This document shows positions 14,283 to 53,600 of a DNA stretch of 64,000 bases, piece after piece (within the stretch, counting starts at the first letter, position 1; the number at the start of each line of letters is the position of its first letter). The stretch is taken from assembly GCF_049337375.1 (NCBI RefSeq), contig NZ_JBMPIV010000015.1; one strand, given 5' to 3'. The stretch comes from Nannocystis pusilla. GTDB lineage: Bacteria > Myxococcota_A > Polyangia > Nannocystales > Nannocystaceae. Under the pieces are notes generated by a model. It was not told where the DNA came from. It worked only from the letters and a program-made list of their open reading frames with translations, and searched no databases. The position numbers and the translations under genes were made by a program.

Positions 14283-14385
14283 CGCCTGTCCTTGCAGACA
14301 TCCGCGATCCCGCACCGGCGCGGATGTCCGCAGGGACAGGTCACCTCTCGAGCGGCTCGTCTGTCCGCGAAGACAGGCGGGCCTC
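14283..14385. repeat. Compound REP-like hairpin between convergent genes (terminator-like)
   Basis: CCTGTCCTTGCAGACATCCGCG - 12 nt - CGCGGATGTCCGCAGGGACAGG (20/22 bp inverted repeat), followed by CTGTCCGCGAAGACAG. Lies between the stop of the 12838..14277 gene and the stop of the 14395..15105 gene. Confidence 0.8.
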
Positions 14386-17301: not shown

Positions 17302-19134
17302 ATGGCCGTCCGCTTCCGATCCGCCGCCGAGCCGCGCCCCGCGACCGCCCGCCGCGGACGGGCGCGCGAGGCCACCACGGACGAGCCGGGCGCACCCGCC
17401 GAGCCGCGCCCCGCGACCGCCCGCCGCGGACGGGCGCGCAAGGCCACCACGGACGAGCCGGGCCTGCCCGCCGAGTCGCGCCCCGCGACCGCCCGACGCG
17501 GACGGGCGCGCAAGACCACCACGGACGAGCCGGGCGCACCCGCCGAGCCGCGCCCCGCGACCGCCCGCCGCGGACGGGCGCGCAAGGCCACCACGGACGA
17601 GCCGGGCGCACCCGCCGAGCCGCGTCGACCCACACCGCGGCCCCGTCGCACCGGCGGTAGCGAGCGGACCCGGGAGGCCGCTGCGGACGAGTCGCAGTCT
17701 GCGACCACCCGGCGCGTGCGGGCCCATGCGACCTCGGGCGCCGAGCCGCGCCGAGCCGCGCGGTCGAGCGTGCGTGAAGCCGCGCCCGCCAAGTCGCGCC
17801 CAGCCGCGCCGAAGAACGAACGTACCCCCGAGGTCGCGCCCACCGAGCCGCGACCTGCCCGGCGCGTGCAGGGTGGGGTGGCCACCGCCGACGTCGTCGT
17901 GTCCGCGCGGGTCGGCGACAACGCCGAGCTGTTCGCCCAGGTCCTCGAGTTACATGTCCCGAAGGGCAGCACCGTCGCCGACGTCACCTACGGCCTCGGC
18001 GTGTTCTGGCGCCGCGTCCCCGACGGGGCCTACACCCTGCTCGCCAGCGACATCGCCCTCAAGCCGGATGTCCCCGCGCGCGCCGGCGCGAAGCTGACGA
18101 GCGGCGTCGACTGCCGCGCCTTGCCGTACGCCGACGCCAGCCTCGACTGCGTCGTCCTCGACCCGCCCTACATGGAGGGCATGTACCGCCGCAGCGTCGA
18201 CCACATGGCCGGCTCCGGCACCCACGCCGCCTTCCGCCGCGCCTATTCGGCGGCCGCCGTCACCGAGTCGGGCCCCAAGTGGCACGACGCCGTCGTCGAC
18301 CTCTACGAAAAGGCCTGCCGCGAGGCCGCGCGCGTGCTCGTGCCCGGCGGCGTCCTGATCGTCAAGTGCCAGGACGAGGTCAGCGCCAACAAGCAGCGCC
18401 TCACCCACGTCGAGCTGATCACGGGCGGCGAGTCGCTCGGCCTCTACTGCAAGGACCTGTTCGTACTCGTGCGCCCCAACAGCCCCGGGGTCAGCCGGCT
18501 CAAGGCCCAGGTCCACGCGCGCAAGAACCACTCCTACTTCCTCGTGTTCGAGAAGCGTCGCCTGGCGATCCGCAGCGTCCGCGACTTCACGGCCGGCGCC
18601 GACATGTCCGCGAGGACAGCCACGGTCGTCCCCGAGAAGATGACCGAAGAGACAGGCGCGGGCCCGAGCAGGAAACGACGCAAGCCGGCCACCGAGAGCG
18701 CTGGCGGCGGCGGACCGTCCTCAAGGCGAGGTCCGTCGAAGTCCGAGGCGCCGGCCGAGCCCGCAGCGGAGACGGTCGCCCGAACCGGGACCCCGGGCGC
18801 GCTCGCCAGCGCGAGCCCCGCCGAAGCGAGTATGTCCCAAGGTGCAGGTGCACCGGCGCTCGCCCCCCCACGCAGCGAGCCGAGCGAGCCGCAGCCCCCC
18901 GGTGTGCCCATGCCCCTCGGGACAGGTTTGCTCGCACCCGAGCGCCCACCGGGCGCATCGACGACGCGACCCGTGAACAGCGACCTGTCCCTCGAGACAG
19001 CCACCCGCACCGCCACGGCCTCGCCTCCGGCTCAACTGCCGCTCCTCGACCTGTCCCAAGCGCCAGCCCCCAAATCCTCCCCGGGCCGACCTCGCCGCCG
19101 CCCGGCCAAGGCGGGGCAGGGGGGGGGCGGTTGA
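17302..19134 (+). CDS. SAM-dependent methyltransferase with DPPY catalytic motif (N6-adenine/N4-cytosine-like or rRNA m2G-like), N-terminal basic tandem repeats and C-terminal Pro-rich tail
   Basis: Five 20-aa repeats of [24 protein letters not shown] (60-bp DNA tandem repeats, 17330-17640). A core with a putative SAM loop ([12 protein letters not shown]) about 60 aa before [13 protein letters not shown], in gamma-class motif order. No adjacent restriction enzyme gene. Confidence 0.6.
17330..17640. repeat. 60-bp coding tandem repeat x5 (AT-hook-like basic repeats of the methyltransferase)
   Basis: ccgccgagccgcgccccgcgaccgcccgccgcggacgggcgcgca(a/g)ggccaccacggacgagccgggc units read directly from the sequence. 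Confidence 0.85.
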
Positions 19135-19303: not shown

Positions 19304-20713
<1,410 letters not shown>

Positions 20714-29580: not shown

Positions 29581-30302
29581 GCACCATCGGCCATGTCGTT
29601 CCGACCATGTCCTCCAGGACATCCCGCCAGCGCGGCCTGTCGCTGATCGAGATCCTCGTCGCGGTGGCGATGATGACGATGATGACCGCGTCGGTCTACG
29701 CCAGCTTCAGCACCACGGCGCAGAGCATGCGTTCGGCGGAGAAGACTCAGCAGAAGTACGCGGTGCTGCGCAACTGCCTGGCGCGCATGGGCACCGAGGT
29801 CTCGCTGGCGTACCTGTCGCACAACCGCCCGGCCGGCGACGACAAGCACTACACGCTGTTCGAGGGCCGCGACCAGTTCAACTCCGACAGCCTGACGTTC
29901 TCGGCGTTCGCCCACATCCGCATGCGCAAGGACGCCAACGAGAGCGATCAGTCGGTCGTCCAGTACTTCCTCGCCAAGGACCCGAACGACGCCAACCGCA
30001 CCCACCTCTTCAAGCGCGAGACGCGGCGGCTGATGGGCGACGTGCCGGAGAAGATGGAGGAGTGGTGGCCGGCCTACGTGTTCTGCGAGGACATCAAGTC
30101 GTTCGACGTCAAGTTCTGGGACGTCAAGCGCATCGAGTGGCGCGACGAGTGGCGCACGATGAAGCAGGACATGCAGCCCAACCGCCTGCCCGAGCGCGTG
30201 AAGATCACCCTCGGCGTGTGGGACGCGGACCTCGGCAAGGAGGTCAAGTACGTGACCCAGACCCTCATCCCGATGCAGGAGCGCATCGACTTCTCCCGCT
30301 GA
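29577..30302 (+). CDS. gspJ: Minor pseudopilin GspJ-like
   Basis: QRG|LSLIEILVAVAMM prepilin motif. RBS GGGAGGGAAG upstream. 241 aa. The upstream part of ORF 29136..30302 was rejected. Confidence 0.8.
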   Translation: MSTIGHVVPTMSSRTSRQRGLSLIEILVAVAMMTMMTASVYASFSTTAQSMRSAEKTQQKYAVLRNCLARMGTEVSLAYLSHNRPAGDDKHYTLFEGRDQFNSDSLTFSAFAHIRMRKDANESDQSVVQYFLAKDPNDANRTHLFKRETRRLMGDVPEKMEEWWPAYVFCEDIKSFDVKFWDVKRIEWRDEWRTMKQDMQPNRLPERVKITLGVWDADLGKEVKYVTQTLIPMQERIDFSR

Positions 30303-37203: not shown

Positions 37204-37367
37204 GGCGCAGAACATCGAACCGCGGCGCGTGACCACGGTTCATCGACTTCGAAGACTGTCCCGAAGGACATGTCGTGTCTCTCCAGCGCCGCCGCCCCCG
37301 CGCGCGTGGGAGCGCGCGTCGGGTGACATCGCGGCAGCGTGTTACGCTCGCGCCTTCGGAGGGTGCG

Positions 37368-39767
37368 ATGAAGGAGATCGAGATTCGGATCGGGCGTGGC
37401 GCCGCGGCCACGCGTTTCGCCGCCGTCCTGGTCAAGTCGGGCAGCACGGCCACCCGCAGCTTCGAGCGCGCGCGCAGCGGGCCGGGCGTGCAGATCCACC
37501 TCACCGGCGAGCGCGACTACCACGTCGCCCTCGTCGCCGAGCCCTCGGCGGCCGACAAGGCGCTGCTGCGGTCGTCGGTCGGGCACAAGATCCTGCTCGA
37601 CTTCCCCGGCCGCCGCGCCGTCCGCCAGCGCCTCGCCGGTCTCTCGGGACAGGGCCTTCAGGACAGGCCGGAGCCCCAGGCGGCGGCGCTCGACCTGACC
37701 GCGGGCATCCACGGCGCGGCCCCGCTGTTCCTGCTGCCGTCCGGCGAGCTGGCCGGCGACGCTGCCGGACCTGCACCGAAGGACATGTCGTCGCTGCCGG
37801 TGTTCGTCGCCGCGGCGCGCTGGATCTCCGCGCGGCGGACCTCGAGCTTCGAGTGCCTGTTCCCGCCGAGCGCGTTCTTCCCCGACGAGCCGCTGCGGGC
37901 CGAGCGGCTGACGCGGGCGCAGGCAGGTGCGCTGCTGCAGCAGGTCGAGGCGGTGTTGACCGCGGCGGCGCCCGCAGGTCCGCACGGGGCGGTCGACGAT
38001 GCGGTGCAGCTGCGCTCGGCGGCGCTGACGGTGCTGTCGCACGTGGTCGCCACGGTGCTCAAGGACCCCGAGTTCCGCGCCGCCGCCGACGCGGCCGCCG
38101 CTCGCATCCTCCGGCTGATCGACGACGAGGCCGGACCCGGCGGACGCAGCGAGCTGCGGGCGCACGCCATCTCGCTGCTCTCGCTGCGCGGCCCGGCCCT
38201 GCGGCCCGAGCAGCAGGCGCGCGCGCAGGCGCTGCTGCGCTCGCTGTCGCGGCAGGCCCCGCCGTACGCGGCGCTGAACGGGCCGTGGCGGTTCGCTGTG
38301 GCCTCGGCCTCCGAGTTCTTTCCGGGCGAGGTCGAGCTGCTGCAGACCAAGTACGGCTTCACCAAGATCGCCGCGCCCGAGGGCACGCCGAAGCCGCCGA
38401 ACCAGTGGGGCGAGGGCTACGCGGTGCTGCAGGCGCCGTTCGTCGGCAAGGGCGGGCGCGAGTTCTTCGTGTTCGCCCGCTCGGCCTCGCCGCGCGACGA
38501 GAACTTCGAGATGTCGCAGGAGTTCTTCACCGGCCTGCTCGTCAGCCGCCACGCCAACCTCGGCGCCTACGACATGCGCGCCTCGGCGATCCAGACCCAG
38601 CAGGTCGGCTACAAGCTGATGATGAACTGCCAGTGCGCCGGGCTGACCACGCGCTTCGCCATCGCCCGCATGTTCCCCGACGCCGACATCTTCTCGAGCT
38701 GGGACTCGACCTACTTCCGCACCGGCGAGGGCGACAAGGTGGTGGCCTCGGAGGGCATCGACTGCTTCGTGGCGATCCTGCGCGGCCTCGCCGAAGAGGA
38801 GGACTTCGCGGCGATCGACCAGCGGATCCGCAAGGCCCAGTGGCACCACCGCCAGAGCCGCACGCCCGACTTCGTGCAGTTCATCGGCCCGGCCCACCCG
38901 CTGGTGGTGGCGCGCTACCAGGACATCAACCGCGACGGCAAGGCCGACTACTACGACGGCTTCCTCGACTTCCGCCTGGTCGAGATCGCCGAGAGCCTCA
39001 AGGACTCGGCGGTGCCGCGCGACCCCGGCGCGTCGCCGTCGCAGATCAGCGGCGAGGCGGCGCGCGGGCTCGGCTGGGCCGCCGGCAGCCTCAATCGGGT
39101 CACGCAGTACTCTGAACTTTGGGACAGCTTGCCGGGCCAGGCCGAGATCCTGTACGCGTTCCGGGCCGGCGGCTTCTTCAGCGGCGCCGAGCCGCCGCGC
39201 GACGTGCCGGCCGGCAAGGGCCCCCGCGGAGAGCTCGGCCGCTTGCCCGCGGTGGTCCGCTACGTCCGCGACCCGGCCGGCGACGCGCTGACCGCCGACG
39301 TTTTGTTTCACAGCCACCTCAGCCACAGCGCGCAGGAGCTCAAGCGCTTGCTGGTCGCCGCCGAGGCGTGGTGGCGGGCGATCGACCTCGGCTACCTCGC
39401 CGACGCGCCGCCGCTCGACACGCTGCTCGGCCAGCGCGCCGGACTGCTGCTGCTGCTCGCCGGCTTGCTCGAATTCCCGGCCGACCAGAACTTCGTCGAC
39501 GGCCTGTGGGAGATGGCGCTCGACATGCTGCAGCTGCCGCGGCTGTCCCGCTCGCTGATCCGCCGCTGCAACAGCGACGAGGACCACGACAACGGCAACT
39601 ACTATGGGTCGGTGCGAGGCATCCGCGAGCTCGTCGGCACGGCCGAAGCCCCCGGCGGGGCGCTCAAGCAGGCCAACCCGGAGGCCTACGAGGACCTGGC
39701 CGCCGCCGACCCGGCGATCGGCCGCGCCCGCCCGCTCGGCGAGGTCGCGCAGGCGGCAGGGGTGTGA
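37368..39767 (+). CDS. Large hypothetical protein (about 800 aa), function unknown
   Basis: Good RBS (GGAGGG), diverse amino-acid composition, and GC3-rich codons. Contains the motif MMNCQCAGLT and an EF-hand-like loop DINRDGKADYYD. No confident family assignment. Confidence 0.6.
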   Translation: MKEIEIRIGRGAAATRFAAVLVKSGSTATRSFERARSGPGVQIHLTGERDYHVALVAEPSAADKALLRSSVGHKILLDFPGRRAVRQRLAGLSGQGLQDRPEPQAAALDLTAGIHGAAPLFLLPSGELAGDAAGPAPKDMSSLPVFVAAARWISARRTSSFECLFPPSAFFPDEPLRAERLTRAQAGALLQQVEAVLTAAAPAGPHGAVDDAVQLRSAALTVLSHVVATVLKDPEFRAAADAAAARILRLIDDEAGPGGRSELRAHAISLLSLRGPALRPEQQARAQALLRSLSRQAPPYAALNGPWRFAVASASEFFPGEVELLQTKYGFTKIAAPEGTPKPPNQWGEGYAVLQAPFVGKGGREFFVFARSASPRDENFEMSQEFFTGLLVSRHANLGAYDMRASAIQTQQVGYKLMMNCQCAGLTTRFAIARMFPDADIFSSWDSTYFRTGEGDKVVASEGIDCFVAILRGLAEEEDFAAIDQRIRKAQWHHRQSRTPDFVQFIGPAHPLVVARYQDINRDGKADYYDGFLDFRLVEIAESLKDSAVPRDPGASPSQISGEAARGLGWAAGSLNRVTQYSELWDSLPGQAEILYAFRAGGFFSGAEPPRDVPAGKGPRGELGRLPAVVRYVRDPAGDALTADVLFHSHLSHSAQELKRLLVAAEAWWRAIDLGYLADAPPLDTLLGQRAGLLLLLAGLLEFPADQNFVDGLWEMALDMLQLPRLSRSLIRRCNSDEDHDNGNYYGSVRGIRELVGTAEAPGGALKQANPEAYEDLAAADPAIGRARPLGEVAQAAGV

Positions 39768-39809: not shown

Positions 39810-40136
39810 ATGCACCGCCTCACGCCCGGGCTCGCCGGGTTCGCCCTGGTCCTCGCGGCCTGCACCGGCTCGGCTCGGCCGCCCCAACCTGTCCCGGAGG
39901 ACAGTTCACCCGCGGCCGCGCCGGCCGCAGTCGGCCCTGCGGATGCCGGCGGCTCGTGCTCGGCCAGCGCCGCGTGTCCGGGCGCCGCGCCGGCCCGTTG
40001 CGCTGGGCGCGGCGAGGGCCGCTGCCGCAGCGAAGACGGCGTGGGCTGCCGCTTCGAGCCGAAGTCGGGCCCCCCGCAGGTCCGCTGCTGCGACGGCTCG
40101 GAAACTTGCACGTTCACGCCGCTGCCGGGCGCGTGA
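39810..40136 (+). CDS. Small Cys-rich lipoprotein
   Basis: Strong RBS AGGAGGG. Signal peptide plus lipobox (LVLAACTG). 8 Cys in 108 aa. Confidence 0.5.
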   Translation: MHRLTPGLAGFALVLAACTGSARPPQPVPEDSSPAAAPAAVGPADAGGSCSASAACPGAAPARCAGRGEGRCRSEDGVGCRFEPKSGPPQVRCCDGSETCTFTPLPGA

Positions 40137-40149
40137 GCGCGTATGAGCG

Positions 40150-40292
40150 GTCCGCCGGAATCTGCGCTTCCGGCGAGGTCCTGGATGACCTGTCCGCGAG
40201 GACATGTGCTTCGGGCAATGTCCGGGCGGCCCGGTGCTAGGCGGTTGAGCTGTCCGCAGAGACCTGCTCTTCGGGCAATGTCCCGGCGACCA
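40150..40292. repeat. Cluster of three REP-like palindromes between convergent genes
   Basis: gacctgtccgcgaggacatgtgcttcgggcaatgtccgggcgg ... gagctgtccgcagagacctgctcttcgggcaatgtcccggcg. The last unit supplies the C-terminal 18 codons and the stop of the 40237..41280 gene. Confidence 0.8.
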
Positions 40293-41280
40293 GGTGCTCG
40301 AGCCAGGCGGCGAAGCGCGGGCCGGTGAGCCCGTGGCCGAGGTGGTAGCGCAGCTCGGCCTCGACCGCGCCGCGCCACGCCTCGAGCTCGCCCGAGCCGG
40401 CCAGCAGCTCGCCGACCGTGACGTCGCCGAGGCCGGCGACCGCCTCGGTGAGGACGGCTTCGACCTCGGCGGGCAGGCGGTCCCAGGCTGCCACTGCGAC
40501 CAGCGCGGCCTGGACGTCGGCCGCGACCACGGCCGGGTCGAGCTTGACGAGCTCGGCGTGGACGGCCGACTCCGGCAGATCGAGCAGCGAGGCGAGGACG
40601 TCGGCGCGGAAGGCCGCGCCCTCGCCGGCGTGCTTGGGGTCGCTGACGCGGTCGACGATCATGTCGATCACGCGACCGACGGCGCCGTCGACGAAGCCGC
40701 GCACGCGGTCCTCGACCGAGGCGTCGAGCCCGACCACGGAGGCCACGCCCTTGGCGACGCCGAACAGCTTCGAGGTGACGCCGGCGCCCGGGATCTTGCT
40801 GGTGTCCGGCAAGATCGAGCCGACCTTCTTGGCGAAGTCGAGCAGGGTGGTGTGGAGGATCGTGCGCGACAGGTCGCGCACGGTCGCTTGATCGACGACG
40901 GCTCGCACGAGCGCGCGGCTCGGCGTGTAGGGCCTGCGGACCACGGTGCGCAGCAGCGGCAGCAGGTCGCCGGGCAGCCGCGCGCGCAGCGTGCCCTGCC
41001 GCGGACGGATCCGGGCCAGAGCGTCGCGGAGGCGCTGCTCCAGCCACGTCGCGTGGGCGGGCGCGGCGGCGACGGCCTGCAGGCCGGTGACGATCAGCGG
41101 GGTCAGCCGGACGGGATCGATGAAGCGGCGCGCCGGCGCAGCGAGGACCTCGTCGACCAGCAGCGCTGCCAGCGCGGCGAGGTAGCGCGGCTCGTCGCGC
41201 AGTCGCGCGAGGAGGGCAGGGACGTGGGGCACGCCGGCCCTATACCAAGCTTCTCGCACGGGGGATACGCTGGTCCTCAC
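40237..41280 (-). CDS. Hypothetical protein
   Basis: 347-aa ORF with GTG start and coding-like composition. No recognisable motifs. The C-terminal tail is encoded by a repeat element. Confidence 0.5.
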   Translation of the reverse strand: MRTSVSPVREAWYRAGVPHVPALLARLRDEPRYLAALAALLVDEVLAAPARRFIDPVRLTPLIVTGLQAVAAAPAHATWLEQRLRDALARIRPRQGTLRARLPGDLLPLLRTVVRRPYTPSRALVRAVVDQATVRDLSRTILHTTLLDFAKKVGSILPDTSKIPGAGVTSKLFGVAKGVASVVGLDASVEDRVRGFVDGAVGRVIDMIVDRVSDPKHAGEGAAFRADVLASLLDLPESAVHAELVKLDPAVVAADVQAALVAVAAWDRLPAEVEAVLTEAVAGLGDVTVGELLAGSGELEAWRGAVEAELRYHLGHGLTGPRFAAWLEHLVAGTLPEEQVSADSSTA

Positions 41281-41342: not shown

Positions 41343-42194
41343 ATGCACAGTCGCAACGTCGAGATCAAGAGCCCCTGCCACGAGTCATGGGACGCCATGC
41401 ACGGCGATGCGGAGCGCCGCTTCTGCGATGTCTGCGCCAAACACGTGCACAACCTCTCGGCGATGACGCGGCAGGCCGCCACCGATCTCCTGCAGGCGCA
41501 CAAGGGCGAGCACCTGTGCGTCCGCTACTCGAACCAGGAAGACGGCCAGATCGCGTTCCGCGACACCGTCCCGCTGTCTCGCCTCCGCCCGGTGCGGACC
41601 GCCTTCGCGGCGATGCTGCTCGCCGCCTGCGCCCCGCACGGCGACGGCCCGCCGATCCAGGACATCGGCGACATCGCCATCGAGGCGATGGCTCGCGACG
41701 CCAAGCCCTCGCCCGAGGGCGGCTGCGAGGTCCAGACCGGGCCCTTCACCACGATGCACTTCCCCTCAGGTCACGAGGTCTGCAAGAACGTCGTCGACCT
41801 GGGGGCCCAGATCCGTCCGCCCCAGCCGCCGCCGATCCCGACGACCCCCGAGGTGACGGTGCCGACGATGGGCGCCGCGCCGATCGCCGCCGATCCGCCG
41901 CCGCCGCCGCCGACCGAGGAGTTGATGGGCAAGGTGGCGCCGGTCGAGCACGCGAAGATGGGCGAGGCGATGCCGGAGGTGAAGGAGCCGTGCGACCCGC
42001 AGGCCGGCTTCGCCCCGCCGCCGCCGCAGCAGATGGGCCAGGCGCCGGTGAAGGTGGTCGAGCCGCCCAAATCGGAGCCGCTGATGGGCGACATCGCCGT
42101 CGACATCCCGCCGCCGCCGCCGCCCGAGCCGGTGCGGATGGGCCGGATCGCCCCGGCCAAAACCGGCACCGCGAAGGTCGTCGGCGACCGCTGA
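41343..42194 (+). CDS. Cys-rich N-terminal zinc-ribbon-like domain protein with Pro-rich repeats (possible anti-sigma-like or membrane-anchored regulator)
   Basis: N-terminal CHESWDAMHGDAERRFCDVCAKHVHNLSAMT (C/H-x-C-x2-C arrangement), a hydrophobic segment (FAAMLLAAC), then PPPP-rich repeats around ...MG... units. Confidence 0.55.
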   Translation: MHSRNVEIKSPCHESWDAMHGDAERRFCDVCAKHVHNLSAMTRQAATDLLQAHKGEHLCVRYSNQEDGQIAFRDTVPLSRLRPVRTAFAAMLLAACAPHGDGPPIQDIGDIAIEAMARDAKPSPEGGCEVQTGPFTTMHFPSGHEVCKNVVDLGAQIRPPQPPPIPTTPEVTVPTMGAAPIAADPPPPPPTEELMGKVAPVEHAKMGEAMPEVKEPCDPQAGFAPPPPQQMGQAPVKVVEPPKSEPLMGDIAVDIPPPPPPEPVRMGRIAPAKTGTAKVVGDR

Positions 42195-42367
42195 GCGCGA
42201 GCTTCTGCGCGCCGGAAATTGGCGTCGAGCGAGGCGACCTCGAGCCCCTGAGCGCCTGAGCGGCGTCGGCAGGGGCGCTCGTCGTCATGGCCTTCGTCCT
42301 CGTGGGCGGCCGTCTCCGAGGGCGAGGGCCGCCGGTCTCGCTCGATGGTGGAGGCGCCGCCATCGGC

Positions 42368-42545
42368 TATGGTCGAAGAGACATGTCCGGGCGGTCATGC
42401 CTGACGTCCCCTGCGAGCGCGGCTGGAGCCGGCCTGCGGAGCTGACGGACATGATCGGACGGACATGCCCGAAGCGCCATGCTGCTTCGGGCATGTCTTC
42501 GAGGACATGCCCGAAGCGACAGGCTCTCAGCTACCGGCGGTGAAG
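42368..42545. repeat. Cluster of REP-like palindromes between convergent genes
   Basis: gaagagacatgtccgggcggtcatgcc...gacggacatgatcggacggacatgcccgaagcgccatgctgcttcgggcatgtcttcgaggacatgcccgaagcgacagg, which form several overlapping hairpins. Confidence 0.8.
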
Positions 42546-45500
42546 TCCTCGCGGTTGCTGTCCCACCAGGCCTGCCAGGCGCGCAGGGCCAGGTCGCGGC
42601 TGCGGCGGTCGCCCTCGGCCGGGAACGGGATCCGCTGCCCGGTGATCCGCGCCAGCTCGTCGGCGGCCCAGCGGCGCACAGCCTCGTCGCGGTGGCGCAG
42701 GCCGTCGATGACCCACTCGATGCGCGGCTCCTGGCCGTGCTCGGCGTACCAGGCCCGCCAGCGCTGGGCGCGGTAGCCGTGGTGCTTGGCGGTGATCGAG
42801 CACAGGGCCTCGAGCGCGGCCTCGCGGACGTGTTTGTCGCGGACCGCCAGCAGGTCGATGAGGCGCGGCACCGCGAGGGTGTCGCGCAGGGTGCCGGCGG
42901 CCTCGACGGCGAGCAGCTGGCGGTCGCGGTCCGAGCTCTCGAGCTCGCCGCGGATCTCCGCGGCCACCGCCGCGAAGTCGGGCACGCGGCTGTAGGACTC
43001 GAGCACGCGGGTGGCGATCAGCCGCACGTCGGGGTCGGGGTCGAACGCCAGCTCGCCGAGCGGCCGCAGGCACTTCGGGTCGCGCAGCTCCTGGAACAGG
43101 AACGCGGCGTAGAAGCGGATCTGCGGCCGTGCGCTGGCGAACAGGGCGAGCACGTGCGGGCTGACCGCGTGCCCGAGCTCGACGCAGGCGCGCAGCAGCG
43201 GGCCGTGAGCGCTCGGCGGCGGGAAGTTGGTCGCGTTGGCGAGGTCGATGGGACCGGGGAAGCGCGCGGCCAAGCGGGCCAGGCCGCGCTCGTCGAGCGC
43301 GCGCAGCCGCGACACGCTGGTCCACTCGGCCGGGTTCTGCAAGAAGTCCTCGATCACCGCGTCGATCTCGCGGTCGTCGAGCGCCGCGCCGGAGGCGGCC
43401 TCGGCGGTCGCGGCCGGCTCCTCAGTCGACGGCTCGTCGCTCGCGGGGGGCTCGGCGGCCGGCGCGGCCGCGGGGCGGTCGGCCGCCGGCGGGGCCGCGA
43501 TGGACCCGCTGGCTTCGGCGGCGTTGCCGGGCCCGCTCGCGTCGACCTGCGCCTTGGAACCGGTCGCCAGGGACATGTCCTCGGGGGCATGTTCCGCCGG
43601 GATGGCCCCTCGCGCGGTCGACTGGGCCGAGGCGTCGTCGGCCTCCGCCTCGCGCACCAGCTTGGGCATGGTCAGGGCGCTGGACGAGGAGTCGGGGCGC
43701 GGGTCGTGCTTGCCGCGCCGCCGGCCGCTGCGCGGGCCGATCAGCGTGGTCGGCATCGACAGCGTCGGACCGCCCTCGAGCTCGTCGGGGTCGCTGCGAC
43801 GGGCCATCGGGTGAGGCGTGGCGGTGAGGCCGCCCGAGCGCCGCAGCGTCTTCGGGATCACCAGCACCGGCTCGTCCTCGGCCGGCTCGTTCGCGCGGCG
43901 ACGGCGGCCCGCGCCGGGCGTGCCGGGCGGGGCGACGAGGTTGGGGATCAAGGTCTCGGGCGGGACCGGGGAGTCGACCCGCGGGAGGTCGAGGACGGTC
44001 TTGGCGTCGGGCGCGGCGCGGGTCTCGACCAGCAGCGGCTCGTGCGTCGGCGGCGGCGAGAGGTCGAGGATGGTCGGGGTGTCGGAGGCGGCGCGCGGCC
44101 ACTCGTCGAAGTCGTCGCGCGTGGATGCCCGCGTGGTCTCCTCGAGCACTACCCGCGGCGCGCCCGGCAACGTCGCCGCCGGATCGTGATCGACGCGGGC
44201 CTCGGCGGCGGTCGCGGCCGAACGCAGCGCCGCGGCCACGGGCAGCGGGTCCTCGATGCCCGACGGCTCGGCGGTGGCGATCCAGCCCGGCATCTCGGGC
44301 TGCGGGCTCGCCGGCGGCGGCTCGGGGCTGTCCGATCGGGCATGTCCGAAGGTATTGGGCCGATCGGACAGGTCGATCGTCACCGCCGGCAGCGGCGGCT
44401 TGGTGAACATCGCGGCGAAGCGGGCCACGAGCGGGCTGTCCTGGCCGTTCTCGGGGCCGAGGGGCACCGGGACCGGCGCGAGGCCGAGGCCGGGGCCGTC
44501 GCGGCGCGGCGGCGGGCTGTCGGGCTCGTCGGGGTCGTCGGTGAGGTCCTCGTACTCCGGCTCGTCGGCGGGCGGGGACGGCGGCTCGTCGGCGAGCGTC
44601 TGGGCCCGCACGAGCGCCGAGCTCTCGGCGCGCACCGGCAGCGGCGTCACGGTCGCCGGGTCGTCGCGCCGGATCGGGTTCTTCAGGGTGATGACGGCGC
44701 GCCCGCGGTTGGCGCGGCTGCGCAGCCGGCCGGCGAGGCTGTTGCTGTCCCCGAAGCCAGGTTCACTCGCGGCGCCGCTCGCGGTCGGCGGCGCCTCGGG
44801 CTCGTCGGGCTCGGCCGACGCCTCTGCGGCCGGCGGCTCGGGCTCGCTCTCCGAGCTGTCCGCAGAGACAGGTGGCGTCGTGGCCGGCGCGTCGGTCTCG
44901 TCGACGGTGACGATCGGGGTCGCCAGGTGCGGCCGGATCGACGGGCGCGTGCGGTCGGCCGGGCCGGCCCCGGGCGTGCCGCCGGGCACCACCCACCCGA
45001 GCAGCCGCAGCAGCGCCTCGAGGCTCTGCCGGGCCGTGTCGCACAGCTCGCGCAGGACGGTCCGTTCGCGCGGATCGAAGGCGACGCCGGAGCGGTCGAG
45101 GTAGAGCATCAGCACGGTGCGGCCGCCGGCGAGCACGGGCTCGAAGATGCAGGGGATCCCCAGCGGCTGGCCGACGGCGAACGACAGGCTCGGCTCGATC
45201 AGGAGGTGCAGCGGGCCCTGGCCGGACACCGCGCGATCGAGCAAGCCACCCTCGGGCAGCGGGATGACGAGGCCTTCGGACATCCGCAGCGCGCTGCCGG
45301 GCGCGGCCAGGACGCGCAGGCCCTCGCGCTTGACCCCGAACAGGGCCACGCGCGGGGCGATCAGCGCGGCGGCCCGCACCAGGGCCTCGGTGATCCGGTC
45401 GCGCTCGCGCGCGGTGGCGAGAGTGGCGCGGGCGGCGTCGAGGCGCTGCGCCAGAGTCATGACCATCGGCTGCGGCGCGGCCGGCGGCTTGCGCGTCGAC

Positions 45501-48004
45501 GACTCGACCAGATCCTCGTCGGACGCGGCCTCCGGGGCGCTCGTGGCGACTTCGGCAGAGCTGGTCGAAGGGACAGGCTGGCTCGGCGCGGGCGCGACGG
45601 GGCTGGCCGAAGAGACAGGTGGGTTCGGCGCGGCCGCAGGGCGAGCGACGCCGTTGCTGGAGCCGTGCGCGGGGGTGGACTTGTCGGGGGCGGGGGAGGG
45701 CGCCACGCCGACGGGGATGCCGACGAGGGTGCGCCTGTCCCAATTGCCAGACGAGGTGTCCGAGTAGATCGGCACCCCGAGGGCCGGAGTCACCGGTCGG
45801 GGCGTGGTGGCCGGCGGCAGGATGATGAGCGGCGTGTCGGGGGCGATGGCCATCGCCGCCAGCGATGCGTTCTCGTCCTCGAAGCCGCCCGGGTCGATGA
45901 GCGGGGCGTCCGGGGCGACGGGGACGGGCGAGGGCCGCGTCGACGGTCGGTTGGCGGCCGCAGCGGCATCGGGCTCGGGCGCGCGGGAGTCGTACGCCGC
46001 CGTCTGGCGGTTCGCGGCGGCGGCGGGCGTGGGGGCGGGCTCGGTCCGGCGTCCCGCAGCGGCGTGGCTCGGGGTGTCGAGCTGGGGTGACCTGGTCGCA
46101 GAGACAGGTGTTGTGTCTGGGGCGGGGGCGCGGCGGGAGGGCGGGGGCGTAGCGGAGCTGTCCGTGGGGACAGGTGCCGGCGCGCCGGTGACGCCCGACG
46201 ACGCCGATGCTGCGCCTTGGCTGTCCTCAGGGACAGGTGTCGCGGTCGCTGGCGTGGAGCTCGTGGAGGCGGCCGTCCGGTCCGCGGCGGGGGGCACGGC
46301 GGCACGGACATCCCGGTCGGGCGCCGGCGAGCCGGCGGGAGTCGGCGCTGCGGGGGCGGCGGATGCCGGGTCGTTCCCCGCGCGGGCTCGGCTGCTCGAG
46401 TCGGTCGTCTCGTCGCGGCTGTCCTTGAGGGCAGGTGCGAGCGGTTCGCTCGAGCTGTCTCCGAGGGCAGGCGCGGTCGCGGCGGCGTCGGCGGACGCGC
46501 CCGTCCGCGGCGAGCCGGTCGCAGCCTCCGCTGGCGGCGGAGCGGCGCTGGACGGTGACCCCGTCGCGCGCGCCGCGGTGTTCGGTCCCGACATCGCCGC
46601 CGGTCGCGGGCCGGCCATCTGTCTGTCCGCTGGGACAGGTACGTCGGCCTGCAGCGCGTTGGCCAGCGGCCCCGGCGCGGCGGCAGTCGAAGCGGTCGTC
46701 CCGTCCGCCGCGACAGAGGCAGTCCGCGGGTCTGCCGCGGCACTCGAGCTCGCGGTGCCGGCGGCTGGCCCGGCCTCGGTGCCTTCTATCGCGTCGACGG
46801 ATCTGTCCCCGGAGACAGGAGCATCCGGGGGGCCAGCGGCGGGCGCCGATCGCTGCGCGGTGCCGGCGGTCTGGTCGACCGCAGCGCCGTCGGTCCGCGA
46901 CGAGCCGCGGGCAGGGCCCCCGGCCTCGACCTCCAGGCCATGGGTGGCGGCGGGCGCATCGGTGCGAGGGGCCGGAGCGCTGGACGTCGCGCTCCCGTCC
47001 GGGCGGGCCGCTCGGTCGGCGCCGGTGTTCGCCGCATCGGCGATTCGAGCGTCGACCGGCGTGTCCGCGCCGGACGGCTCCCGTCGGGCGTCGGCGTGCG
47101 ACCTGTCCGCAGGGACAGCCGCCTCTGTCGCTCGGTCGCCGGCCGGCCGCCTGTCCGCAGGAACAGCTGCCTCGGCGCGTGCATCCGCCGGCTGCCTGTC
47201 CGTAGAGACAGCTGACTCGGCGCGGGCTTCTGCTGGATGCCTGCCCGAAGGGACAGCTGCCTCGGCGCGAGCCTCGGTCGGCTGCCTGTCCATGGGAACA
47301 GCTGCCTCGGCGCGGGTCTCCGCCGGCTGCCTGTCCGCAGGGACAGCTGCCTCGGCGCGAGCCTCGGTCGGCTGCCTGCCCGAAGGGACAGCTGACTCGG
47401 CGCGGGCCTCTGCCGGATGCCTGTCCGCCGGGACAGGTGCTTCCGCCGCCCGCCTGTCCGCAGGGACAGCCGCTTCGCTCGGCCGCGGCTCGGCGGCGCC
47501 CGGGACCAGGCTGATCGTGATCGAGGCGGTGCGCAGCGCCTCGAGGTAGTCGAGCAGGATCAGGGCGTAGCGCGGGGCGAGGATCGAGCCGGTGCGCTCG
47601 GCGGCGATCTTGGCCAGGCAGCACTCGGGCGCGACGACCGGGTAGAAGCCGCGGACCATGCGGTAGAGCTGGCCGAGCTTGGCGTCGGGCAGGTCGGGGT
47701 GGACGGCGACGATCAGCCGGCCGTCCTCCTGCGCGAGCGGCATGGCCCAGCCGATGTCGACCAGGTCTCTCGGGACATGTTCCCAGGGACGGCTCGCCCC
47801 GCGCTCGAGCAGCCGCACCGGCGCGCCGGGCAGGCCGCAGGCGCTCTGCAGCAGGGCGTCGAGCTGCAGCGGGGTCATCAACCCGAGCTCGAGGATCGCG
47901 GTGTCGAGGCTGCCGCCGGCCAGCTGCTGCCGCCGGGTCGCGGCCTCGAGATCGGCGCGCGACAGCGGGCCGTTGGCTTCGAGGTGGCGCAGGAGGAGGC
48001 TCAA
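42527..48004 (-). CDS. Giant multidomain protein (about 1825 aa): N-terminal MshEN/T2SSE_N-like domain, about 1200 aa disordered Ala/Pro/Thr/Ser-rich region with 15-aa tandem repeats, possible GAF-like segment, C-terminal HEAT/PBS-lyase-like repeats
   Basis: The likely start is TTG 48004, overlapping the RDD gene stop (ATTGA). N-terminus: LSRADLEAATRRQQLAGGSLDTAILELGLMTPLQLDALLQ. C-terminus: repeated ...DPDVRLIATRVL... / ...DKHVREAALEAL... HEAT-like helices. Upstream in-frame codons (to 49204) overlap rsmE/RDD and are Arg-rich, so they were rejected. Confidence 0.7.
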   Translation of the reverse strand: MSLLLRHLEANGPLSRADLEAATRRQQLAGGSLDTAILELGLMTPLQLDALLQSACGLPGAPVRLLERGASRPWEHVPRDLVDIGWAMPLAQEDGRLIVAVHPDLPDAKLGQLYRMVRGFYPVVAPECCLAKIAAERTGSILAPRYALILLDYLEALRTASITISLVPGAAEPRPSEAAVPADRRAAEAPVPADRHPAEARAESAVPSGRQPTEARAEAAVPADRQPAETRAEAAVPMDRQPTEARAEAAVPSGRHPAEARAESAVSTDRQPADARAEAAVPADRRPAGDRATEAAVPADRSHADARREPSGADTPVDARIADAANTGADRAARPDGSATSSAPAPRTDAPAATHGLEVEAGGPARGSSRTDGAAVDQTAGTAQRSAPAAGPPDAPVSGDRSVDAIEGTEAGPAAGTASSSAAADPRTASVAADGTTASTAAAPGPLANALQADVPVPADRQMAGPRPAAMSGPNTAARATGSPSSAAPPPAEAATGSPRTGASADAAATAPALGDSSSEPLAPALKDSRDETTDSSSRARAGNDPASAAPAAPTPAGSPAPDRDVRAAVPPAADRTAASTSSTPATATPVPEDSQGAASASSGVTGAPAPVPTDSSATPPPSRRAPAPDTTPVSATRSPQLDTPSHAAAGRRTEPAPTPAAAANRQTAAYDSRAPEPDAAAAANRPSTRPSPVPVAPDAPLIDPGGFEDENASLAAMAIAPDTPLIILPPATTPRPVTPALGVPIYSDTSSGNWDRRTLVGIPVGVAPSPAPDKSTPAHGSSNGVARPAAAPNPPVSSASPVAPAPSQPVPSTSSAEVATSAPEAASDEDLVESSTRKPPAAPQPMVMTLAQRLDAARATLATARERDRITEALVRAAALIAPRVALFGVKREGLRVLAAPGSALRMSEGLVIPLPEGGLLDRAVSGQGPLHLLIEPSLSFAVGQPLGIPCIFEPVLAGGRTVLMLYLDRSGVAFDPRERTVLRELCDTARQSLEALLRLLGWVVPGGTPGAGPADRTRPSIRPHLATPIVTVDETDAPATTPPVSADSSESEPEPPAAEASAEPDEPEAPPTASGAASEPGFGDSNSLAGRLRSRANRGRAVITLKNPIRRDDPATVTPLPVRAESSALVRAQTLADEPPSPPADEPEYEDLTDDPDEPDSPPPRRDGPGLGLAPVPVPLGPENGQDSPLVARFAAMFTKPPLPAVTIDLSDRPNTFGHARSDSPEPPPASPQPEMPGWIATAEPSGIEDPLPVAAALRSAATAAEARVDHDPAATLPGAPRVVLEETTRASTRDDFDEWPRAASDTPTILDLSPPPTHEPLLVETRAAPDAKTVLDLPRVDSPVPPETLIPNLVAPPGTPGAGRRRRANEPAEDEPVLVIPKTLRRSGGLTATPHPMARRSDPDELEGGPTLSMPTTLIGPRSGRRRGKHDPRPDSSSSALTMPKLVREAEADDASAQSTARGAIPAEHAPEDMSLATGSKAQVDASGPGNAAEASGSIAAPPAADRPAAAPAAEPPASDEPSTEEPAATAEAASGAALDDREIDAVIEDFLQNPAEWTSVSRLRALDERGLARLAARFPGPIDLANATNFPPPSAHGPLLRACVELGHAVSPHVLALFASARPQIRFYAAFLFQELRDPKCLRPLGELAFDPDPDVRLIATRVLESYSRVPDFAAVAAEIRGELESSDRDRQLLAVEAAGTLRDTLAVPRLIDLLAVRDKHVREAALEALCSITAKHHGYRAQRWRAWYAEHGQEPRIEWVIDGLRHRDEAVRRWAADELARITGQRIPFPAEGDRRSRDLALRAWQAWWDSNREDFTAGS
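47095..47490. repeat. 45-bp coding tandem repeat (about 9 units), each unit containing a CTGTCC-N4-GGACAG palindrome
   Basis: Units such as gcctgtccgcagggacagctgcctcggcgcgagcctcggtcggct. Encodes AVPADRQPAEARAEA-type repeats in the giant minus-strand protein. Confidence 0.85.
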
Positions 48005-48600
48005 TGTTCCCTCACGACGTAGGTGCCTGTCAGGTAGTCGTGGAAGGCCCGCTTCTCGCGGTCGAAGGCCATCCACAGCGAGCCGAGGCCGCCGGGCACC
48101 AGGCCGACGGCGGTGCCCGCGAACCGCACCGTCGCGCGCACCGGGCCGACCTTGCCGCCGGCGCGGTGGACCACGCGGATCCCGGTGAGCTTCTGCCCGG
48201 GTGTCCTTCCGGACAGGGCGATGAAGAGCACAAAGTAGATCGCGACCATCACCAGGAGCGGCGCCAGCCACACGAGGATCTCGAGCGGGTCGACGGTCAG
48301 GAGCTGGAGCAGGCCGGCCCACGAGAAGGCGCCGCGCACCGGGCTCGCCTCGCCGATCACGCGCTGAAGACCGAGGTGCAGCGGGCCGGCGGTGACGAGC
48401 AGGATCGCGGCGTCGACCAGCGCGGCGGCGAGGCGACGCCAGAAGCCGGCGACGCGCACCGGCACCAGCGCTTGCCCGCACGCCGGGCACGTCGGTTGCC
48501 CGTCCTTGACGAGGCCGATGTCCAGCGCCGCGTCGCAGCTCGGACACGGTGCGGGTCGCTCCTTGCGGGACCAAAACGCCATCGGCGCGCACCATAACAC
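48001..48600 (-). CDS. RDD-family membrane protein with N-terminal zinc-ribbon
   Basis: CPSCDAALD...CPACGQ zinc ribbon. TM segments. RDD signature AFDREKRAFHDYLTGTYVV. Confidence 0.75.
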   Translation of the reverse strand: MLWCAPMAFWSRKERPAPCPSCDAALDIGLVKDGQPTCPACGQALVPVRVAGFWRRLAAALVDAAILLVTAGPLHLGLQRVIGEASPVRGAFSWAGLLQLLTVDPLEILVWLAPLLVMVAIYFVLFIALSGRTPGQKLTGIRVVHRAGGKVGPVRATVRFAGTAVGLVPGGLGSLWMAFDREKRAFHDYLTGTYVVREH

Positions 48601-48654
48601 GGCCCCGGGCCTCCCGGTCCGTCCCCGCGCGGCGCGGCCGGTCCCCGCCGGCGC

Positions 48655-49344
48655 TCAGGCGAACATCACGCGAGCGACGGCGACCAGCGCCGCCGTCTCG
48701 GTGCGCAGCGTGTAGGGCCCGAGGCCGAGCGCGCGGAAGCCCGCGGCGCGCAGCAGCGCCGCCTCCTCGGGGGTAAACCCACCCTCGGGCCCGACGCACA
48801 CGCGAGCACCCGCGGCGACCGCCGGCGCGTCGCTCGATGTCGCGCGCAGCTCCTCCCACGCGAACAAGCCGGGGAGGTCGGTGCGCCGGTGCGTGGCCTC
48901 GCGGAGATCGACGGGTCCCGAGATCGCGGGCGCGCGCGGCCTGCCGCACTGCCGCTGCGCCGCTCGCAGCACCCGCGCGATCCGTTCGCCGCCGGGCGCC
49001 GCGCCCTGGCTGCGGGCGCAGCGGACCAGCACGACCTCGGCGACGCCGATCTCGCACAGCGCCGGCAGCACGTCCAGCACGGTGGCCGGCTCGGGCATGC
49101 CGAGCAGGACCACGACCTCGCGCGCGGGGACCGGCACCGTTCGTTGCTCGAGCAACTTCACAGTGGTGCCGCGCGCGTCGCCGCCGACGACCTCGGCCAG
49201 CCACAGCGCGCCGTGGTCGTCGATCGCCTCGATGCGCGCGCCGTCGCCGACCCGGCGGACCCGCCGGAGGTAGTGCGACTCGGCGGCGTCGAGGTCGACG
49301 CGCGCCGGGTCGGCCGGCGCGCCCACGAACACCCGCGTGCTCAT
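48655..49344 (-). CDS. rsmE: 16S rRNA (uracil1498-N3)-methyltransferase RsmE
   Basis: ATG 49344 (MSTRVFVG). PUA-like N-terminus and SPOUT C-terminus: VCVGPEGGFTPEE...LGPYTLRTETAALVA. Start overlaps the prmA stop (ATGA). Confidence 0.85.
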   Translation of the reverse strand: MSTRVFVGAPADPARVDLDAAESHYLRRVRRVGDGARIEAIDDHGALWLAEVVGGDARGTTVKLLEQRTVPVPAREVVVLLGMPEPATVLDVLPALCEIGVAEVVLVRCARSQGAAPGGERIARVLRAAQRQCGRPRAPAISGPVDLREATHRRTDLPGLFAWEELRATSSDAPAVAAGARVCVGPEGGFTPEEAALLRAAGFRALGLGPYTLRTETAALVAVARVMFA

Positions 49345-53541: not shown

Positions 53542-53600
53542 AGCGCATGTCCTGGAGAGCATGTCCGCGGGGACATGCTCTCCGGAGCATGGCCTCGAGA
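53538..53600. repeat. REP-like palindrome cluster between convergent genes
   Basis: cgcatgtcctggagagcatgtccgcggggacatgctctccggagcatggcctcgagagcatgctc. Lies between the DUF1963 stop (53541) and the MATE stop (53611). Confidence 0.8.

Follow-up and report, generated by a model that had tools for sequence, protein, structure and literature searches.

What becomes of a protein when a short palindrome found throughout a genome also lives, many times over, inside its reading frame? This question is raised by a giant gene of Nannocystis pusilla, located on the minus strand (42527-48004) of the 64,000-nucleotide stretch of contig NZ_JBMPIV010000015.1 that was analyzed here and is hereafter called the window. 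The gene encodes a protein of 1825 amino acids (aa), and its first linker is packed with in-frame copies of the palindrome CTGTCC-N4-GGACAG. The explanation that we favor for the locus as a whole, with reasonable though not firm confidence, is that of a modular scaffold in which a disordered linker acts as an in-frame sink for an element resembling repetitive extragenic palindromes (REPs) and varies by tandem duplication. The protein itself is lineage-restricted, unstudied and made of ordinary domain types; its notable feature is the palindrome-coded, length-variable linker, with a hint of a genus-wide way of writing disordered segments.

The gene starts with a TTG codon at 48004 and stops at 42527-42529. 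Its product is a full-length, 100% match to NCBI WP_422888961 ("hypothetical protein [Nannocystis pusilla]"), so that the ORF (open reading frame), the start codon and the database identity bear out the protein of about 1825 aa which an initial annotation, made from the DNA letters, had placed at these positions. A conservation profile obtained from an alignment of 21 orthologs splits the protein into five parts:

42527-48004, minus strand: whole gene, with the order degenerate MshEN, linker 1, GAF, linker 2, HEAT
47525-48004, minus strand: N-domain (aa 1-160), MshEN/GSPII (T2SSE_N) type, conserved and gap-free in the 21 orthologs
45455-47524, minus strand: linker 1 (aa 161-850), disordered, Ala/Pro/Ser/Thr/Arg-rich, barely alignable
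45005-45454, minus strand: GAF-fold domain (aa 851-1000), conserved and gap-free in the 21 orthologs
43370-45004, minus strand: linker 2 (aa 1001-1545), disordered, Pro/Ala/Asp/Glu-rich, semi-conserved
42527-43369, minus strand: HEAT solenoid of the phycobilisome (PBS) HEAT type (aa 1546-1825), conserved

The initial annotation had described the middle of the protein as about 1200 aa of low-complexity sequence. Long disordered linkers are indeed present, but they are not uniform, and the conserved GAF-fold domain between them had been missed. Linker 1 has no conserved islands in the ortholog alignment. Linker 2 retains short motifs within Nannocystis, among others VITLKNP, LIPNLVAPPG, VLVIPKTLRR, PTLSMPTTLI, and LTMPKLV.

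A palindrome maintained at the nucleotide level in the linker

The palindrome CTGTCC-N4-GGACAG occurs in the window 8 times in its exact form versus 0.02 times expected, and 55 times versus 4.1 expected when up to two mismatches are allowed. Within the giant gene there are 7 exact copies, 15 copies with at most one mismatch and 22 with at most two, of which 3, 6, and 13, respectively, lie outside a tandem array near the N-terminus. The figure of at least 15 further copies outside the array, given in the initial annotation, was therefore an overcount. Linker 1 alone holds 14 of the 17 in-gene cores (TGTCC-N4-GGACA) in 2.07 kb, about 6.8 per kb. The array and the isolated copies are arranged as follows:

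47091-47477, minus strand: tandem array of nine palindrome-bearing units (seven of 45 bp, one of 48 bp, and one of 33 bp)
46803-46818, minus strand: isolated in-frame palindrome with one mismatch, PVSGDR, aa 396
46623-46638, minus strand: isolated in-frame palindrome, PVPADR, aa 456
46419-46434, minus strand: isolated in-frame palindrome with one mismatch, PALKDS, aa 524
46221-46236, minus strand: isolated in-frame palindrome, PVPEDS, aa 590
46158-46173, minus strand: isolated in-frame palindrome, PVPTDS, aa 611, still present in most Nannocystis orthologs
44856-44871, minus strand: linker 2 palindrome, PVSADS, aa 1045; the one clear copy in linker 2, which also has two weaker cores

The array encodes 15-mers of the type E-A-A-V-P-A-D-R-Q-P-A-E-A-R-A (aa ~176-301). 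Tandem Repeats Finder reports 7.5 copies of the 45-bp unit at 47102-47440 with 80% matches, and together with the irregular 48- and 33-bp end units these make up nine palindromes within 47103-47469, in agreement with the array of about nine 45-bp units initially annotated.

All 15 copies with at most one mismatch are read in a single codon phase (xCT GTC CNN NNG GAC AGx), which yields the peptide [A/P]-V-[P/S/L]-x-D-[R/S]. The same single phase was found for 74 of 74 copies in six Nannocystis orthologs and, in a metagenomic ortholog of 63% identity, for 11 of 12. The codons used to write these peptides are distinctive. Of the 21 codons preceding V-x-x-D, 14 end in T, compared with 4.6% elsewhere in the gene, and all 9 Arg codons that follow the motif are AGG or AGA, compared with 14 of 163 Arg codons gene-wide. 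This rare-codon pattern (NCT, AGR) also holds in five orthologs. Since the outer stem pairs are written with rare codons, it is the nucleotide palindrome that is maintained in the linker; the linker hosts the palindrome family, as had been initially proposed. Isolated copies are found at orthologous positions across species, and their stem columns have a mean pairwise identity of 0.82 versus 0.52-0.58 for loops, flanks and other parts of the linker, a difference possibly inflated by an alignment anchored on the palindromes at sites that were chosen for being palindromes in the window.

Other points, besides this possible inflation, weigh against a linker shaped by the palindrome. Tandem copies are not independent, and the codon and phase statistics given above overstate the significance, the direction of the codon effect being unambiguous. 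Arrays devoid of the palindrome exist: N. punicea has one with a 63-bp unit that encodes "PVPSTR", and another relative (L005) has one with a 51-bp unit. At the aa-456 site, N. punicea has kept the peptide as PIPADR, written with common codons, and lost the palindrome. Because of these palindrome-free arrays and of this site, tandem duplication does not need the palindrome, and some constraint at the peptide level is possible. Single hairpins are weak (-4 to -5 kcal/mol as DNA), and the array mRNA does not exceed shuffled sequences in its degree of folding (z=-0.33). The stability of RNA or DNA hairpins was rejected on these two grounds as the reason for the upkeep of array and palindrome.

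The palindrome is also an element of the genome at large. Among the palindromes of 5-bp stem and 4-nt loop in the window, TGTCC-N4-GGACA ranks first, and TGTCC itself is not a common pentamer there. Its 53 cores in the window are divided among the giant gene (17 in 5.5 kb), intergenic DNA (16 in ~5.9 kb, about 9% of the window) and other coding DNA (20 in ~52 kb). Across 14 other Nannocystis loci, 52 of 120 cores fall in the 16% of DNA that is non-coding; these loci were picked for containing the palindrome, and frequencies derived from them are biased. The consensus is RSM-TGTCC-N4-GGACA-KSY, with nothing conserved beyond 3 nt on either side of the core, and neither a GTAG or CGTC tag nor a target duplication was found at the copies. 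The element is present in the gene and its flanks in Nannocystis and in the metagenomic relative, and is absent from the ortholog and flanks in Paraliomyxa (an ortholog of 1127 aa) and Sorangium. When one exact variant was searched against the genomes of 185,579 species, the 80 matches listed comprised 14 Nannocystis loci, the rest being singletons. A literature search for a repetitive extragenic element of Nannocystis found no paper.

Other Nannocystis proteins carry the palindrome as well. A UvrD/AddA-like helicase has 7 phase-2 copies (PVPADR etc.) in a disordered N-terminal extension, a zinc-ribbon protein and a Ser/Thr kinase have 5 and 3 copies, respectively, read as PVPxD[S/R], and the 7 copies of an FGE-sulfatase-like protein are in phase 1, where they read LSGGTG or MSGGTG. 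These four proteins, whose multiple copies lie in frame in disordered segments, belong to N. punicea (L070, 2880-7481), Nannocystis sp. RBIL2 (L069, 3792-5084), N. radixulma (L084, 5132-6934), and N. exedens (L018, 2144-4444).

Two further patterns were noted among the copies in the window. Among the 20 copies in other coding DNA, many read ATGTCC-N4-GGACA and lie at or near predicted start codons; examples of ATGTCC-N4-GGACA(G/T) are found at 7340-7355, 19397-19412, 29607-29622, 18604-18619, and 1190-1205 (minus strand). The corresponding proteins would begin M-S-x-x-T, and a hairpin stem or inverted repeat would contain the start codon; AAGGAG lies a few nucleotides upstream of the copy at 19397. 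Intergenic clusters occur at 14286-14376, 39889-39904 and 40190-40205, 53561-53576, and 37256-37271, the first of which, flanked by convergent genes, consists of three copies within 90 bp that are part of a larger palindrome.

Reading frame, array dynamics and the origin of the copies

At a G+C content of about 72-75%, the window has long ORFs open in many frames. Across most of 42527-48004 the frame of the giant gene has a G+C content at third codon positions (GC3) of 0.9-1.0, and every other predicted coding sequence of the window has a GC3 of 0.85-0.99. Within both linkers GC3 is 0.88-1.0 apart from the first ~1.1 kb of linker 1 (46279-47524), where there is no GC3 excess (0.78, 0.75, and 0.79 at the first, second, and third codon positions); the corresponding values for the 45-bp array are 0.83, 0.69, and 0.70. 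This loss of the GC3 signature in early linker 1 is consistent with rapid sequence turnover there. Composition-based gene finders could split or mis-frame the gene at 46279-47524. Long ORFs in other frames or antisense (e.g., 1203 aa on the plus strand, 42479-46090) were rejected as high-G+C artefacts, because the gene frame has a GC3 of 0.9-1.0 there and is conserved in orthologs. On the minus strand the ORF stays open for another 400 codons beyond the true start, as far upstream as 49204; this extension is a by-product of high G+C and not a gene.

Complete orthologs range from 1110 to 1936 aa, and in each of them one unbroken frame joins all three domains, with wholly different linker lengths and arrays. 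The family is probably under-annotated, its repetitive linker breaking short-read assemblies or gene calls. As side observations, one N. pusilla assembly (Na p29, OV079_15440, P0089) annotates only a 378-aa C-terminal fragment, and most metagenomic homologs (P0034-P0085, P0091-P0112) are N-domain-only or HEAT-only pieces on short contigs.

Comparisons among species and strains revealed how the arrays change. The 45-bp array has 7.5 copies in our window versus 3.4-3.9 in three relatives (other Nannocystis), N. bainbridge has an array of 4.1 copies of 42 bp, and L005 one of 7.7 copies of 36 bp. The palindrome-free arrays consist of 6 copies of 63 bp and 4.9 copies of 51 bp. The closest view is provided by a 99% identical strain (L129, Logan ERR2215891), to which DNA identity is 0.992 in the N-domain, 0.984 in GAF, 0.989 in HEAT, and 0.949 in linker 1, the fastest-evolving part, and from which our protein differs at 102 amino acids, 99 of them in the linkers. 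The array of this strain has gained a 33-nt palindrome-bearing unit, and unit variants with ADR and SGR have been reshuffled. Seven indels separate the two strains, all of them multiples of 3 (33, 3, 6, 3, 6, 9, and 6 nt), and the ratio of synonymous to nonsynonymous codon differences is 15:3 in the domains and 37:61 in linker 1. Folded domains are thus under strong purifying selection, and the linkers evolve near-neutrally, rich in indels and with the frame strictly kept. Taken together, the indel lengths and the two ratios indicate that the frame is under selection and that the sequence of linker 1 is nearly free. The variation in repeat number which the initial annotation had considered plausible, and had suggested looking for, is therefore real: comparing orthologs and strains, arrays differ in both the number and the order of their units.

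We propose that linker 1 behaves like intergenic DNA held open in frame; it carries the palindrome at approximately intergenic density. Copies are confined to the codon phase that reads as acceptable codons (phase 2 is the phase most compatible with GC3-rich codon usage), and their stems are maintained at the nucleotide level while loops and flanks drift. To generate new copies, palindrome-containing units would be tandemly duplicated in frame, or undergo slippage or unequal recombination. Such in-frame duplication, which best explains the uniformity of phase, would keep the phase automatically and would lead to lineage-specific arrays of 45, 42, or 36 bp and to length variation between strains. 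As for the force behind the genome-wide upkeep, the possible candidates are a hairpin-recognizing transposase, templated repair, or a DNA-binding protein of high abundance.

This account has to be weighed against three others. One holds that the long ORF is a high-G+C artefact, that the N-domain, GAF, and HEAT belong to two or three separate genes and that the repeats are untranslated spacer; the GC3 signal is indeed missing from the array and from the initial ~1.1 kb of linker 1, where several other frames are open, and one N. pusilla assembly annotates only the C-terminal piece, but such a reading is barely credible given the unbroken three-domain frame of every complete ortholog, the strain indels (7 of 7 multiples of 3), the strong tandem periods in orthologs (all multiples of 3), and a GC3 of 0.88-1.0 over the remainder of both linkers. 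The palindrome could also be a by-product of selection for the repeated peptide PVPxD[R/S] as a short linear motif. Val (GTC) and Asp (GAC) codons are reverse complements of each other and preferred codons, so that V-P-x-D gives GTCC-N4-GGAC almost for free, and similar PVPxD[S/R] peptides recur in other Nannocystis proteins, besides the PIPADR site and the PVPSTR array that N. punicea keeps without the palindrome. We nevertheless find this quite unlikely: the outer stem requires a rare NCT codon before Val and AGG or AGA for Arg, codons that greatly exceed their background frequency here, intergenic DNA is rich in the same palindrome, its phase-1 copies encode LSGGTG in another protein, and the Paraliomyxa and Sorangium orthologs have no such motif. 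Finally, the in-gene copies might stem from many independent insertions of a mobile element akin to REPs or miniature inverted-repeat transposable elements, in the manner of the Rickettsia palindromic elements (RPEs). There is precedent for in-frame palindromic repeats in ORFs, usually in loops or linkers, and the element is genus-wide, enriched in intergenic DNA and present in several unrelated genes. Against such insertions, which we regard as unlikely, all but one of the 86 cores in seven orthologs have the same phase, where phase 1, tolerated elsewhere, would be expected too; the isolated copies are old, as judged from their orthologous positions across species; new copies are seen only as tandem units; and there is no conservation beyond 3 nt from the core, no GTAG or CGTC tag and no target duplication.

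Beyond the explanation by in-frame duplication at this locus, a genus-specific palindrome of 16-20 bp may be the raw material and driver of disordered segments, being kept up at the DNA level by a sequence-specific system, colonizing or persisting in DNA that codes for intrinsically disordered regions, in those codon phases whose peptides (PVPxD[R/S] or LSGGTG) are acceptable, and seeding in-frame tandem amplification there. This is a tentative proposal, to which we give rather less than even weight. If true, a selfish or structural DNA element would tune tether length in the scaffold, the helicase, the kinase and other proteins, and would be a compact bacterial counterpart of the Rickettsia RPEs, acting on linkers genome-wide.

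The folded modules and the question of c-di-GMP

The N-domain was analyzed with a profile built from orthologs; the single sequence has no MshEN match above threshold in Pfam or NCBIfam. Specifically, the 1825-aa sequence is not above the cut-off of Pfam PF05157, and a Sorangium relative (P0026) passes it with 31.4 bits versus 23.1. Queried against the PDB, the ortholog profile matched Thermus thermophilus PilF (4.2e-11), Myxococcus xanthus PilB (2e-7), and MshE (3.7e-4). The match to full-length PilF aligns best at its GSPII-A region, and the isolated GSPII-A chain scores 2.2e-7. The AlphaFold2 model of the domain has a predicted local distance difference test score (pLDDT) of 92.3 and consists of a four-helix N-subdomain followed by an alpha/beta C-subdomain. 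All of its top 19 Foldseek matches are MshE, PilB-N, PilF-GSPII, or XpsE-N structures (probability 1.00, template modeling scores 0.43-0.58), the best being 5htl_B (MshE, E=1.4e-6) and the second-best the PilB(N)-PilZ complex of Xanthomonas citri, 7lko (E=2e-6). Profile and predicted structure thus agree with the resemblance to T2SSE_N/MshEN that had been noticed initially.

MshEN domains bind cyclic diguanylate (c-di-GMP) through two motifs of 24 residues each, RLGxx(L/V/I)(L/V/I)xxG(L/V/I)(L/V/I)xxxxLxxxLxxQ, separated by a 5-residue spacer, in which Arg stacks on guanine, the Gly region and Gln make polar contacts, and Leu residues form hydrophobic clamps (Wang et al. 2016). In our protein the register is intact, with motif I at aa 3-26 (LLLRHLEANGPLSRADLEAATRRQ), the spacer at aa 27-31 and motif II at aa 32-55 (SLDTAILELGLMTPLQLDALLQSA); most hydrophobic positions and the Q24 of motif I are kept. 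None of the 24 Nannocystaceae orthologs has the key Arg (position 1) or Gly (position 3) in either motif. Motif I of these orthologs begins with LLL, LLR, or HLR, that is, with L or H at position 1 and L or R at position 3, and motif II has S and D at these positions in all 24 (SLD versus RLG). The last position of motif II is A in 23 of them, S in one and never Q. None of 33 family members matches the published c-di-GMP motif in strict or relaxed form, and the M. xanthus PilB control matches the relaxed form. The c-di-GMP_motif model NF053729 of NCBIfam gives 15.4 bits (E=0.012) versus a cut-off of 38.

Similar losses are known from domains that bind no c-di-GMP. XpsE, a non-binder, carries G11V, R38G, G40L, and Q61V among other changes, and PilF GSPII-A (S39, A41, R62) binds no c-di-GMP either, the third-position Gly having been singled out as important. 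The authors of the latter study proposed that such a non-binding domain is a "landing pad" for partner proteins. Since the contact residues are lost in both motifs, as in these two non-binders, direct sensing of c-di-GMP by the N-domain appears unlikely as far as its sequence can tell, and by analogy the degenerate MshEN would most likely be a docking "landing pad" for proteins rather than a nucleotide receptor. Some considerations pull the other way. Motif II of PilF GSPII-C, a 12 nM binder, also fails the relaxed pattern, which makes the regular expression an imperfect predictor, and residual or atypical nucleotide binding would be compatible with the sequence of the N-domain.

The initial annotation had gone further and presented the protein as a candidate c-di-GMP-responsive scaffold, with an N-domain that would bind the nucleotide directly. 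In favor of direct binding are the preserved fold, 24+5+24 register, hydrophobic positions and motif I Q24, the weak match to NF053729, the expanded MshEN repertoire of myxobacteria (17-22 in M. xanthus), and the fact that real binders can deviate from the consensus, as PilF GSPII-C does with RLE. Yet neither motif retains Arg1 or Gly3 in any of the 24 orthologs, motif II always reads S-L-D and ends in A or S, like changes in XpsE and PilF GSPII-A go with experimentally shown non-binding, the best alignment to PilF falls on precisely that domain, and the NF053729 score is far under its cut-off. With the RLG...Q contacts absent throughout the family, the claim is not supported, and we consider direct binding very unlikely. 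Alternatively, the link to c-di-GMP, to pili or to secretion may be indirect, the degenerate N-domain docking a partner of the PilZ, GspL, or PilM type. There is an analogy in the N-domain of Xanthomonas PilB, a docking site for PilZ, whose own binding partner is the c-di-GMP receptor FimX; the second-best Foldseek match is a complex of exactly this kind, and the "landing pad" proposal for PilF GSPII-A fits as well. However, no pil, gsp, or pilZ genes adjoin the gene at any locus, where the neighbors are prmA, rsmE, and an RDD gene, and a partner of these particular types seems improbable.

The C-terminal module corresponds to the HEAT/PBS-lyase repeats initially annotated, here delimited to the last ~280 aa. 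It matches Pfam HEAT_2 (4.5e-12, 46.5 bits versus a gathering score of 27.7, in 3 stretches) and HEAT (27.5 versus 23.5), with Arm also matched, and its profile against the PDB retrieves alphaRep (3.8e-28) and CpcE (1.7e-3). It has a Trp-rich C-terminal helix and 75 invariant columns. The bilin lyase equivalog NF058502 scores 13.5 bits versus a cut-off of 330, and a lyase function is unsupported.

The central module was recognized by fold comparison. A structure search with aa 851-1000 points to a GAF fold, with a six-stranded antiparallel sheet flanked by helices. Pfam PF01590 (GAF) remains below its cut-off (14.2 bits versus a gathering score of 22.4, E=0.066), and the ortholog profile found nothing meaningful in the PDB by sequence. 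Judged from its modeled structure, this region is a divergent GAF domain. An invariant Cys at aa 952 (45149-45151) is part of an "IPC" motif at the start of a beta-strand, and Arg, Asp, and Tyr residues are invariant too. The closest GAF folds include the bilin-binding GAF domains of phytochromes, and the C-terminus of the protein is a HEAT domain of PBS-lyase type.

No T2SSE ATPase domain with Walker boxes was matched by Pfam in the 1825-aa protein, and the PilB model TIGR02538 covers only residues 4-102 (10.5 bits versus a cut-off of 675). There is no signal-peptide-like N-terminus, the protein opening directly with helix 1 of the MshEN fold in the AlphaFold model. We infer from these features a cytoplasmic, probably membrane-associated scaffold of the Nannocystaceae, in which three folded modules are strung on two long disordered tethers. 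What tempers this description is that "scaffold" derives from the domain types of a family found only in Nannocystaceae and, distantly, in Sorangium.

Locus context and comparison with known systems

Two features adjoin the giant gene:

48001-48600, minus strand: RDD-family membrane protein with an N-terminal zinc ribbon, upstream partner (RDD 2.4e-24)
42484-42517, minus strand: hairpin with a 14-bp stem (GCUUCGGGCAUGUC / GACAUGCCCGAAGC), starting 10 nt past the giant-gene stop

The stop codon of the RDD gene and the start codon of the giant gene overlap by 4 nt (TTGA). The order prmA - rsmE - RDD gene - giant gene, with the same 4-nt overlap, was found at every Nannocystaceae locus examined, which comprised five further Nannocystis genomes, the close strain, the metagenomic relative, and Paraliomyxa. 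This conserved overlap suggests that the giant gene is translationally coupled to the RDD gene, with which the scaffold may form a partnership, the RDD protein possibly holding it at the membrane. Distant Sorangium relatives (~30% identity) have MshEN and HEAT in another neighborhood that lacks RDD. Searches for a characterized homolog with the full-length protein, the HEAT profile and the N-domain profile returned only proteins and fragments of Nannocystaceae and Sorangium, many of those retrieved by the two profiles being fragments at the ends of contigs, with none from Myxococcus and no named protein.

The hairpin past the stop codon (-52.3 kcal/mol, z=-5.2) has a TGTC...GACA core related to the genome-wide palindrome. 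Its 14-nt arm GACATGCCCGAAGC and the complement occur in three copies within 42462-42517, the third at 42462-42475. It is probably a transcript-end hairpin, with no U tract; a scan of the 3' spacer matched neither a canonical sigma-70 promoter nor an intrinsic terminator, and no Rfam family matched in 42000-48700. Further downstream, genes at 41343-42194 (plus strand, 283 aa), 40237-41259 (minus strand, 340 aa), and 37368-39767 (plus strand, 799 aa) have no significant Pfam match, and at all Nannocystis loci their order beside the giant gene is preserved. In the 283-aa protein, a Cys-rich segment at the N-terminus (SPCHESW...RFCDVCAKHV) precedes a tail rich in Pro.

Among known systems, the nearest functional analogues of the N-domain are, by analogy of their degenerate motifs, the "landing pad" PilF GSPII-A of T. 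thermophilus (9g1w) and the N-domain of Xanthomonas XpsE (2d27/2d28), neither of which binds c-di-GMP. Both share its two-subdomain fold and 24+5+24 register, and PilF GSPII-A likewise has Ser in place of the motif II Arg, a side chain in place of Gly (S39/A41 there, S32/D34 here) and no terminal Gln. In contrast to these secretion and pilus ATPases, our protein has no ATPase domain, its N-domain is followed by ~690 aa of disorder, and its motif I is degenerate too, with neither Arg nor Gly. The N-domains of MshE (5htl) and M. xanthus PilB, which bind c-di-GMP or carry the canonical motif, are homologous in fold, and here the RLG...Q contacts are absent; an MshEN-like fold should accordingly not be taken for a c-di-GMP receptor unless these contacts are present. 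The combination MshEN-GAF-HEAT is not among the MshEN fusions of Wang et al. (2016), which involve REC, HD-GYP, CheA, CheX, cyclase, and Ser/Thr kinase domains, so that the family adds a conserved, degenerate MshEN of the putative "landing-pad" kind, fused to GAF and HEAT, in an architecture unlisted for the domain. At its other end, the protein resembles PBS-lyase-type HEAT proteins such as alphaRep and CpcE in repeat type, with no sign of a lyase.

The palindrome, for its part, resembles REPs in being short, present in high copy number and concentrated in extragenic DNA. Like the RPEs (Ogata et al. 2000) and the REPs found within genes (Di Nocera et al. 2013), it is mainly extragenic but occurs also in frame within functional ORFs, where flexible linkers or loops tolerate it and gain extra stretches of peptide. 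It is shorter, with a core of 16-20 bp versus 100-150 bp for RPEs and 20-40 bp for REPs. Its dispersed copies share only this core, whereas RPEs are homologous over their full length, and unlike REPs it has no conserved GTAG/CGTC end tag (as described by Di Nocera et al. 2013). Unlike both, it is present in many copies in one gene and one phase, spread by tandem duplication and not by visible insertion. The locus therefore offers a genome-wide palindrome living inside a reading frame, sampled by a 99% identical strain pair, six species, and two element-free outgroups, in which upkeep against codon bias, a single phase, loss of GC3 and strain-level remodeling of arrays can be seen together, so that the creation and resizing of disordered linkers by repeat elements in bacteria becomes directly testable. 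Finally, the gain, loss, and reshuffling of in-frame 33-48-bp units between close strains recall contingency-type tandem repeats; unlike in those, what varies here is the tether length of a cytoplasmic protein, and we saw no switching of expression, change of surface antigen or on/off frameshifting.

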